From Dictyostelium discoideum (lineage: Eukaryota): a DNA stretch of 64,000 nucleotides. The position numbers were made by a program, and so were the translations under genes. Of the stretch, positions 5,364 to 8,847 are shown in pieces. The notes under the pieces are model-generated. The model did not search any database. It was not told where the DNA came from and worked only from the letters and a program-made list of their open reading frames with translations. The stretch is from positions 2,848,001 through 2,912,000 of the forward strand of contig CM000151.3 in the NCBI GenBank assembly GCA_000004695.1. Reading direction: 5' to 3'. Every line of letters starts with the position of its first letter. The stretch's first letter is position 1.

Positions 5364-5797
5364 AATAAAAAAGATATAAAAAAAGAATAAAATTATTAAA
5401 AAACATGGAAATTTTTTTTTTTTTTTAAACATAGTTTAATTTAATTATTTTTTATTCATATTTTCTTTAACTTCTTAGAGTATTTTTAAGGAAAATAAGT
5501 ATCCTAATTTAAGGGAAAAAAAAAAAATTTTTGTATTTCTCTTTTTAAGACTAAGAATTCCGACAAAAATTTGAAACGAGTGGTTCCAATAATTTAGTGA
5601 GCTATATGGTCTTGTTTCGAGAAAATTTTGAAATGTGGATAGGTTAGGCTGCCATCCATGATCTGTAAATATTATCTCTGGATATTATATTCTTTACCTA
5701 CAATTTAATAATAATAATATAAAAAAAAAAAAGTTAGTCTTTTTTTTTATTTTTTTTATTTATTCTCGTAACAAAAACAAGTTTTTTTTTTTTTTTT

Positions 5798-5872
5798 TAG
5801 TCAGGTTAAAATTGTAAAAGTCATCTATCATAAGTTTCAGCTAATGTAGATAATTTGGATCATCATTTCAAA
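5798..5872 (-). ncRNA. Candidate box C/D snoRNA (copy A)
   Basis: Minus-strand reading gives 5' gaaATGATGA (C box, 5866..5860). A guide-like atctacattag of about 19 nt follows, then CTGA (D' box, 5840..5837), then TGATAGA (C'-like), then CTGA (D box, 5804..5801). The candidate lies in an intergenic GC-richer patch. A near-identical copy sits 300 bp downstream. Confidence 0.5.
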
Positions 5873-6093
5873 AAAAAAAAAAAAAAAATAATTATAAAAA
5901 ATAAAACAAACAATAGCTAAACTTACATAGTTAAGATATAAATAAATCCTATTTACATTGTAAATTAAATAAAATGCTACACAAAAAAAAAATAAAAAAA
6001 AATAAAAAAAAAATAAAAAAAGTTAGTTTTTGTGATTTTTTTTTTTTTTTTTTTTTTTTGTATTTCGTTTGATATTTTAAATGATTGATTGAT

Positions 6094-6168
6094 TGAATCA
6101 GTTGTAATTTTTAAGAATCGTCTATCATAAGTTTCAGCTAATGTAGATATTTGGGTCATCATTTTATA
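6094..6168 (-). ncRNA. Candidate box C/D snoRNA (copy B, paralog of 5798-5872)
   Basis: Same architecture as copy A: ATGATGA at 6162..6156, D' CTGA at 6137..6134, C'-like TGATAGA, D CTGA at 6101..6098. About 45 nt from the C box through the D' box are nearly identical to copy A (tctatcataagtttcagctaatgtagata). The flanks and the second guide region diverge. Confidence 0.5.
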
Positions 6169-6352
6169 ACCAATCTTTTTTTTTTTTTTTTTTTTTTGAA
6201 CGAAATAATTATAAATATAAATACTTACAAGCAACGGTTTATTTTGGAAGTAAACTAAAATGCAAAATGAATTTTTTTTTTTTTTTTTATGGCAACAAAA
6301 CTTTTTAAAAAAAAAAAAAAAAAGTAAAAAATAAAAACACAGGCAAAAATTT

Positions 6353-6786: not shown

Positions 6787-6814
6787 ATGACTGATCACAG
6801 TAATAATTCAACAG

Positions 6815-6884
<70 letters not shown>

Positions 6885-7242
6885 TAATAATAGTAATAAT
6901 AATAATAGTAACAACAACAATAATAATAATAGTACTAATAATAGTAATACCAATACAAATGTTTTATCACAAGAATTATTAGATATATTAAATTCATTAG
7001 CCGATACATTTATAAATGAGTCAAATTATTCTTCTTTTGAAGATTTGTTTATGTCAATAGAGGAAGCGTATTGGTATTACATCGATATACATTTGATTCA
7101 AAATACTAGGTTACCAAAACCTGATTTACAAAATTTTGCGGAAATGAGTAAGTTCTTCATTTTCATTTTCATTTTAATTTTTTTTTATTTTTTTTTTTTA
7201 TTACTGTGTAATATATTTTTATTTTATAATTCCAATCAATTG

Positions 7243-7296
<54 letters not shown>

Positions 7297-8263
7297 AAAA
7301 TAAATTAAATAAAAGTATTACAAAATAATGAAAGATTATTACCATTTCATACAGCATTATTAAATACATCAACTTATAGTGGTATGGTTAAAAAATTTGA
7401 AGTATTCAAAAGATTAATACCGAAATATGGTGCAATTATATTAAATAAAGATATGAGTAAAGTTGTATTGGTTAAAGAACAATGGTGGGGATGGGGTTTT
7501 CCAAAAGGTAAAGGTAAAGAGGGTGAAACTGAAACTCAAAGTGCATCAAGAGAAGTATTTGAAGAGATTGGTTTCGACATTTCATCTTATATAAAAAAAG
7601 ATGCATTCATTCAAAAAGAAAGTCATGGTGTAATTAAAAAATTTTTCATTTGTGTTGGTGTTGATGAATTAACTGATTTTGAAACTCATACAAGATATGA
7701 AATTAGTGTAATGTATTAAATAATTAAATATAATAATATTAATAAATAAAATATTAATATATGTATATTTATTTAAATATAGAGAATTAAATGGCATTTA
7801 ATTGATGATTTACCATTATTTCATAGTAGACAATCACACCAATTTGCAGCTATTATATCATATGTTAAACCATTAATAGCATGGATCGATAATAAAAGAA
7901 TGGAGAATGGTTTAGAACCAATTCATAGAACCAATTCCAATAATAATGAAGGTGGTAATATAGGTGATTTCTCATTTAAATACAAATGGACACCACAAAA
8001 AAACAAAATTAAAAATACTCAACAACATCATCAACAACAAATTCCAGAGGATGATAACGAAATCATTTTAAGTAATGAAGTTGAAAGTATTCAATTATCA
8101 CAGTATATCGATGAGTTTAAATCATTTCTAAATGAGAAACAATCATTATCAACTAGTGGTAATAATACTCCTAAATTAAATTCAAATTTATCTAAGAAAA
8201 TTGAACAACAACAACAGCAACAACAACAACAACATCCACAACAACAAAATCAAAATCAATATC

Positions 8264-8351
<88 letters not shown>

Positions 8352-8847
8352 GCAACAACATCAACAACAAAATCAATATCAGCAACATCAGCATCCACAA
8401 CACAGCAACAACAATAACAACAATAACAATCAACAATTATATCTTCCAAGCTATCAACAACAACAAAATATTCAAAATCAACAAAATTTTCAAAATCAAT
8501 TATTAAACTTTAATAATCAACAACAAAACTTTCAAAATCAATTACGACAACAAAACTTTCAGAACCAACAACAAAACTATCACCAAAATCAGCCAAACTT
8601 TCAAAACCAACAACAACAACCAAACTTTCAAAACCAACAACAACTAAACTTTCAAAACCAACAACAGCAACAAAACTTTCAGAATCAAATGCAAAACTTT
8701 CAAAACCAACAACAAAACTTCCAAAACCAACAACAAAACTTTCAAAACCAAAATCAACAACAACAACAAAACTTCCAAAATCAACAACAAAATTTTCAAA
8801 ACCAACAAAGATTTATGCACCAACAACAATATCAACAATATAAATAA
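6787..8847 (+). CDS. dcp2: mRNA-decapping enzyme subunit 2 (Dcp2) homolog: Box A plus Nudix hydrolase, long Q/N-rich C-terminus; 3 exons (6787..7147; 7355..7707, or alternatively from 7315; 7783..8847)
   Basis: Exon 1 carries a Box A-like motif (MSIEEAYWYYIDIHL, compare Dcp2 QIEEAHWFYEDF) after a poly-N N-terminus. The exon-1 donor is GTAAGT at 7148. Exon 2 carries the Nudix box GWGFPKGKGKEGETETQSASREVFEEIGF. Upstream of it is FEVFKRLIPKYGAIILNKD, matching yeast Dcp2 FNEYKKRVPVRGAIILNED. The exon-2 donor is GTAATG at 7708 and the acceptor tatag at 7781-7782. Exon 3 begins RIKWHLIDDLPLF, matching the Dcp2 KIEWHLLMDLP region, and is in frame with the 7900 ORF. The intron-1 acceptor is ambiguous: acag at 7353-7354 or aaag at 7313-7314. 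Both are in frame. Confidence 0.8.
8213..8350. repeat. (CAA)n microsatellite encoding polyQ inside dcp2 exon 3
   Basis: Long near-perfect CAA run, followed by 13 imperfect copies of a repeat encoding QQQNFQNQ. Confidence 0.9.

Follow-up and report, generated by a model that had tools for sequence, protein, structure and literature searches.

Two box C/D snoRNAs, the tandem paralogues CD17 and CD32, lie start-to-start 296–297 nt apart on the minus strand of Dictyostelium discoideum chromosome 2, within a 64-kb stretch of DNA (64,000 nt starting at chr2:2848001; hereafter the window, in whose positions all features are numbered). We put the probability that the two units found here are the catalogued D. 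discoideum CD17 and CD32, acting as redundant guides for the methylated nucleotide 26S-Um2170, at about 0.96. Both RNAs are already known, and their identification supports an earlier, sequence-only reading of the locus as a pair of box C/D snoRNA candidates.

Each unit carries a C box and a D box, separated by 54 nt in CD17 and 55 nt in CD32, and between them an internal D'/C' pair in which CUGA, the loop AACUUA and UGAUAGA are the same in both copies (see the table). All of the boxes that the sequence-only reading had placed here on the minus strand were found, and its description of copies about 300 bp apart with a near-identical core is borne out by the spacing given above and by the alignment: from C box to C' box the units differ by one substitution and one 1-nt indel. 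It had also described the first guide as kept and the second as not. Indeed, the copies share a 28-nt block, ATCTACATTAGCTGAAACTTATGATAGA (29 nt with the preceding T), whereas in their D-side spacers just 11 of 19 nucleotides coincide.

Table. Features of the CD17/CD32 locus in window positions, listed in the direction of the minus strand
Feature	Position	Strand	Basis or remark
TGTAAGT upstream of CD17	6229-6223	-	shared with CD32 flank
GTAAGT, 58 nt upstream of CD17 5' end (candidate 5' splice site, intron 1)	6223..6228	-	proposed
TATAATTATTT, TATA-like, 48 nt upstream of CD17 5' end	6203..6213	-	11-mer conserved
CD17 (unit A), box C/D snoRNA, 70 nt	6096..6165	-	sequence, published oligo, Table S5, C-D distance
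CD17 C box AUGAUGA	6162-6156	-	sequence
CD17 D' guide, 18 nt, CCCAAAUAUCUACAUUAG	6155-6138, pairing part 6149-6139	-	sequence
CD17 D' box CUGA	6137-6134	-	sequence
CD17 loop AACUUA, 6 nt	6133-6128	-	sequence
CD17 C' box UGAUAGA	6127-6121	-	sequence
CD17 orphan D-side spacer, 19 nt	6120-6102	-	sequence
CD17 D box CUGA	6101-6098	-	sequence
ACTAACTTTTTT, 71 nt past CD17 D box (candidate branch point and pyrimidine tract)	6016..6027	-	proposed
TAG, first AG after CD17-side ACTAACTTTTTT (candidate acceptor)	5979-5977	-	proposed
Putative 50-nt exon 2, AT-rich	5927..5976	-	proposed; bounded by TAG 5979-5977 and GTAAGT 5926-5921
TGTAAGT upstream of CD32	5927-5921	-	shared with CD17 flank
GTAAGT, ~52 nt upstream of CD32 5' end (candidate 5' splice site, intron 2)	5921..5926	-	proposed
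TATAATTATTT, TATA-like, ~27 nt upstream of CD32 5' end, then ~20-nt T-run	5886..5896	-	11-mer conserved
CD32 (unit B), box C/D snoRNA	5798..5874	-	sequence, published oligo, mirrored Table S5, C-D distance
CD32 C box AUGAUGA	5866-5860	-	sequence
CD32 D' guide, 19 nt (one extra U relative to CD17)	5859-5841, pairing part 5853-5842	-	sequence
CD32 D' box CUGA	5840-5837	-	sequence
CD32 loop AACUUA	5836-5831	-	sequence
CD32 C' box UGAUAGA	5830-5824	-	sequence
CD32 orphan D-side spacer, 19 nt	5823-5805	-	sequence
CD32 D box CUGA	5804-5801	-	sequence
ACTAACTTTTTT, 63 nt past CD32 D box (candidate branch point)	5727..5738	-	proposed
TAG, first AG after CD32-side ACTAACTTTTTT (candidate acceptor)	5700-5698	-	proposed
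Putative last exon, GC-richer non-coding stretch, 3' limit approximate	5440..5697	-	proposed
AATAAA in putative last exon	5456-5451	-	sequence

Short box motifs arise readily in DNA of this composition, and the units could in principle be C/D-like motifs that arose by chance, or belong to a dispersed AT-rich repeat, and give rise to no functional RNA. The combination ATGATGA...CTGA alone is frequent in AT-rich DNA (4 in the window, 1.7 expected), and snoScan returned 577 candidates genome-wide in D. discoideum (PMC8817022). The full C-D'-C'-D layout behaves differently. A regular expression for it has exactly two matches in the 64 kb, counting both strands, and none in 100 first-order Markov simulations, which places the layout far beyond chance. 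Moreover, ATCTACATTAGCTGAAACTTATGATAGA has just two copies in the window, both at this locus, where shuffled sequences lead one to expect 0. Published expression and a published target site also speak against chance or repeat origin (PMC8817022). Since the units exactly match snoRNAs that are expressed and published, this explanation is already refuted and we give it a negligible probability.

The match to published RNAs is direct. Diesend et al. 2022 (Sci Rep 12:1952; PMC8817022) catalogued 47 box C/D snoRNAs of D. discoideum, and primer-extension oligonucleotides had been designed for both CD17 and CD32. The CD17 oligonucleotide, TTGTAATTTTTAAGAATCGTCTAT, matches the window exactly over 24 of 24 nt (6102-6125) and that for CD32, GTCATCTATCATAAGTTTCAGC, over 22 of 22 nt (5820-5841) (PMC8817022); both matches are on the plus strand, so that the oligonucleotides are antisense to the minus-strand units. 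Table S4 of the catalogue gives AUGAUGA and CUGA boxes with C-D distances of 54 (CD17) and 55 (CD32), equal to those measured in the window, and each RNA has a positive RNA-seq expression score of 15 and a distinct 5' end (PMC8817022). By the numbering, CD17 is one of the 17 RNAs discovered by Aspegren et al. 2004, and CD32 is one of the 30 (CD18-38 plus OR1-9) that were added in 2022 (PMC8817022). The published RNAs and the units in the window have the same sequence where compared, and the same boxes, distances, chromosome-2 position and target. Comparison with the published Dictyostelium set had been proposed as a check, and oligonucleotides, box distances and coordinates all fit. A spurious 85-aa open reading frame (ORF) across CD17 is not on record. 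As a find the pair matters little, being two catalogued snoRNAs re-discovered, redundant guides for a methylation that ranks among the most conserved in large-subunit rRNA, and it illustrates that true snoRNAs in a genome of 78% A+T can be recognised from the raw sequence.

The published coordinates place the two genes differently at first sight. In Table S5 CD17 lies at chr2 2854096-2854165 on the minus strand (70 nt), which is window 6096-6165, and CD32 at chr2 3177912-3177988 on the plus strand, with a length of 71 nt but a start-to-end span of 77 nt (PMC8817022). By that table they are 324 kb apart on opposite strands, whereas in the window they are 297 nt apart on one strand. Chromosome 2 of AX3/AX4 contains a documented inverted duplication of ~750 kb per arm. 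Mirrored through the arms in AX4, which we take to be 2263132-3015703 and 3016083-3768654, CD32 falls at 2853798-2853874 on the minus strand; this is exactly window 5798-5874, that is, unit B. The conflict in distance is resolved because CD17 and CD32 were assigned to different arms of the duplication. That the two genes are adjacent is not apparent from the published table, a point relevant to anyone deleting both: AX4 has four gene copies in all, and AX2, in which the chromosome-2 duplication is lacking, has two.

The D' guides form 11 (CD17) and 12 (CD32) uninterrupted Watson-Crick base pairs with the large-subunit (LSU) rRNA sequence UAAUGUAGAUAA, and both duplexes span the +5 position, with the U of UAAU*GUAG in the target standing opposite the fifth guide nucleotide upstream of D'. 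This pairing was checked on the LSU rRNA of other eukaryotes and, for D. discoideum 26S rRNA, only by way of a slightly garbled copy of Fig. S6 (PMC8817022), which draws the D' duplexes of both CD17 and CD32. At least 120 metagenome contigs contain the 25-mer target TAATGTAGATAAGGGAAGTCGGCAA, and one of them is identified as eukaryotic LSU rRNA with 2731 bits. Table 1 of the catalogue assigns 26S-Um2170 to 'CD17/32', and RiboMeth-seq detected the site as methylated; it is equivalent to yeast 25S Um1888 (snR62), human 28S Um2824 (U34/SNORD34) and Arabidopsis Um1882 (AtU34) (PMC8817022). Both antisense elements are at least 10 bp long with a known methylated nucleotide opposite position five. 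The rRNA complementarity sought as a check on the guides is present in the right register, and the supposition that the duplicates had kept one shared rRNA target agrees with the listing of both for Um2170 (PMC8817022). Guidance of U2170 methylation by CD17/CD32 is reported in the literature (PMC8817022), and the sequences suggest the following course of events.

The two RNAs would first be assembled with protein: fibrillarin, Nop56, Nop58 and Snu13, the core proteins of box C/D particles, are expected to bind at the C/D k-turn and at the internal pair of C' and D' boxes. Next, the antisense stretch ahead of D' (UAUCUACAUUA in CD17, UUAUCUACAUUA in CD32) would pair with 26S rRNA 5'-UAAUGUAGAUAA-3' and bring the uridine that faces the fifth guide nucleotide into the methyltransferase site, yielding Um2170. 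This register is the canonical one for 2'-O-methylation by fibrillarin. CD17 and CD32 would serve the one conserved site redundantly, and their D-side spacers have drifted apart.

No D-side target is given for either RNA in the catalogue (PMC8817022), and our search with the D-side spacers found no recurrent site in 120 eukaryotic LSU loci. The pair is therefore best described as two redundant single-guide snoRNAs for one ancient site. The idea of a shared target holds, since both RNAs are listed for Um2170 and neither is listed with a D-box target. The opening 8 nt of each D-side spacer, directly behind C' (UGACUUUU in CD32, CGAUUCUU in CD17), can base-pair with GGAAGUCG, which adjoins the target on its 3' side. 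We rejected an accessory pairing of the spacer near the target, as the duplex energy is no better than that of shuffled spacers (fractions 0.17 and 0.32).

The two RNAs differ in their terminal stems, which snoScan gives as 7 bp in CD32 and 2 bp in CD17 (PMC8817022); the fold of CD17 is no better than that of shuffled sequence. About half of D. discoideum snoRNAs are without a terminal stem (PMC8817022). In the CD32 precursor the flanking T-run pairs with a downstream A17 run to form an external stem of -17.7 kcal/mol (z = -3.35), which lengthens the terminal one. Within the units, part of the D' guide AUCUACAU can fold back on the C' region AUGAUAGAU, to which it is complementary, so that each RNA has an internal hairpin (6149-6121 and 5853-5824, minus strand), and the CD32 fold containing this hairpin is better than those of shuffled sequences (z = -2.66). 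The C' region resembles the rRNA target because the guide is partly complementary to it.

Outside the snoRNAs the 297-nt repeat units have diverged into low-complexity sequence, in which three short motifs are kept in the same order: TGTAAGT and the 11-mer TATAATTATTT upstream of each snoRNA, and the 12-mer ACTAACTTTTTT downstream. The 12-mer has two copies in the window, one behind each snoRNA, where 0.09 would be expected, and two of the three copies of the 11-mer are at this locus. On the minus strand of the 64-kb window there are 8 occurrences of GTAAGT, including 2 at the locus, and 5 of ACTAAC. Confirmed introns of neighbouring genes begin with GTAAGT and have ACTAAY 19-98 nt before the acceptor; among the branch motifs reported from introns of D. 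discoideum, WCTAAY is the most frequent. A candidate donor, branch point, pyrimidine tract and AG are thus present around each snoRNA on the same strand.

These signals raise the question of how the snoRNAs are released. In the published view the pair forms an intergenic cluster whose Pol II units, independent or dicistronic, have TATA-type promoters of their own, an account to which we give roughly an even chance. Maturation would then proceed by endo- and exonucleases without splicing, and GTAAGT and ACTAAC would be leftovers of the duplication or elements of promoters and terminators. Conservation of TATAATTATTT upstream of both units fits this account, as do the intergenic mono- and polycistronic units that have been described (PMC8817022). 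At CD32 the 11-mer precedes the mature 5' end by ~27 nt and is followed by a T-run of ~20 nt; Dictyostelium promoters classically combine TATA and oligo(dT) in this way. At CD17, however, 48 nt separate the TATA-like motif from the mature end, and an A22 run lies between the two. Nor do separate promoters explain why the two best-conserved flank motifs have the exact consensus of splice donor and branch point, in the right order, or why a non-coding GC-richer stretch follows at 5540-5697.

The alternative is that CD17 and CD32 each sit in an intron of their own within a single non-coding host transcript on the minus strand, which on the sequence we consider somewhat less than an even bet. Exon 1 would end at 6229, and would be followed by intron 1 (6228-5977), exon 2 (5976-5927), intron 2 (5926-5698) and exon 3 (5697 to ~5440); splicing, debranching and exonucleolytic trimming would free the snoRNAs, as in animal UHG/GAS5-type genes. 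This arrangement draws on the order and strand of the signals, with GTAAGT at 52-58 nt before each snoRNA and, at 63-71 nt past it, ACTAAC followed by a T-run and TAG, on the absence of ACTAACTTTTTT from the rest of the window and on the scarcity of GTAAGT (8) and ACTAAC (5) on this strand. Neighbouring genes share the same signals in confirmed introns, with branch-to-AG distances of 19-98 nt, and the signals fit the WCTAAY motif. It is also favoured by the GC-richer stretch without an ORF longer than 21 aa that begins right at the second TAG, and by three published observations: snoRNA clusters have even spacing, other clusters yield dicistronic precursors, and snoRNA levels do not change when the RNase III DrnB is lost (PMC8817022). 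Against it, all D. discoideum box C/D genes but CD38 are called intergenic (PMC8817022), and the conserved TATA-like 11-mer would lie inside each putative intron. Furthermore, since the units are duplicates, the motifs shared by their flanks are not independent observations. Among the entries listed in a catalogue of lncRNAs (PMC5295588), none has coordinates near the locus on either duplication arm, the region being duplicated in the reference. With respect to coding capacity, the putative last exon contains no ORF longer than 21 aa, and reading exon 2 by eye revealed no start-codon frame running through it. If the introns are real, CD17 and CD32 would not be free-standing intergenic genes but parts of a previously unannotated host transcript spanning approximately 6350 to 5440, a proposal that we hold tentatively, at a little under evens.

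The base composition of the locus bears on the same region. The sequence-only reading had placed the snoRNAs in a GC-richer island. They are indeed richer (0.28-0.33 GC) than their flanks (0.05-0.15), but the island is modest and its richest patch lies outside both snoRNAs. GC content reaches 0.28-0.38 at 5540-5680, 100-260 nt downstream of the snoRNAs, and is at most 0.15 at 5700-5800. The resulting stretch of ~160 nt (5540-5697) begins exactly at the second TAG and stands amid intergenic DNA of 5-15% GC. It has no ORF longer than 21 aa on either strand and no Rfam match, and its folds do not differ significantly from those of shuffled sequences (z = -0.97 and +0.13 for the two strands). A structured RNA such as an H/ACA snoRNA in the patch 5535-5700 was considered and rejected, there being no fold signal, no Rfam match and no H box by eye. 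The stretch may belong to a snoRNA host transcript as its last exon, or represent an unannotated non-coding RNA of its own.

Other features of the window lie on either side of the locus. A plus-strand gene at 6787-8847 has long poly-N/poly-Q tracts and, in its exon at 7384-7719, a Nudix domain (PF00293); the first intron of this gene, with GTAAGT at 7148, ACTAAC at 7290 and AG at ~7315, is an in-window example of the splice signals. A protein database search with this gene for orthologous loci returned only the identical ORF and one distant match, and the Logan contigs retrieved were short pieces of genomic DNA. On the minus strand an uninterrupted ORF of 632 aa (730-2628) resembles, by eye, cytosolic Hsp70/Hsc70 chaperones. 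There are also 100 N characters in the window, which presumably mark an assembly gap.

Non-coding snoRNA host genes have so far been described mainly in animals and in some fungi. Were the host transcript real, the evenly spaced box C/D clusters of Dictyostelium might generally be host genes with one snoRNA per intron, which would account for the regular spacing of ~300 nt, the dicistronic precursors and the independence from DrnB. Biogenesis of snoRNAs in Amoebozoa would then shift towards splicing-dependent release, rather than independent or RNase-III-processed units. The mammalian UHG and GAS5 genes and Drosophila dUHG would be the nearest parallels, sharing with the putative transcript one snoRNA per intron, short ORF-poor exons and regular spacing. 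The distance from snoRNA to branch point differs, at ~67 and 75 nt here compared with an optimum of roughly 50 nt for intronic snoRNAs in vertebrate hosts.

Comparison with snoRNA families places the pair by target rather than by overall sequence. At gathering thresholds Rfam gave no match anywhere in the window. In E-value mode the only matches were to SNORD111 and SNORD34, all of them sub-threshold; for SNORD34 (RF00147) CD32 scored 22.9 bits (E = 0.1) and CD17 16.5 bits (E = 4.5), against a gathering threshold of 38. As these scores fall under the Rfam threshold, we do not file CD17 and CD32 as members of the SNORD34 sequence family. The SNORD34 alignment brings the guide core CUACAUU and the D' box into the same columns. 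Common descent with the family is plausible, although the likeness resides largely in the boxes and the guide, both of which are set by the common target. In vertebrates, U34 is encoded in an intron of a protein-coding host gene. Like CD17 and CD32, SNORD34/U34, snR62 and AtU34 (RF00147, clan CL00055) address the homologous LSU uridine through the D' element, and both D. discoideum guides are in D' register with the uridine homologous to yeast U1888 and human U2824. CD17 and CD32 are functional equivalents of SNORD34 and snR62.
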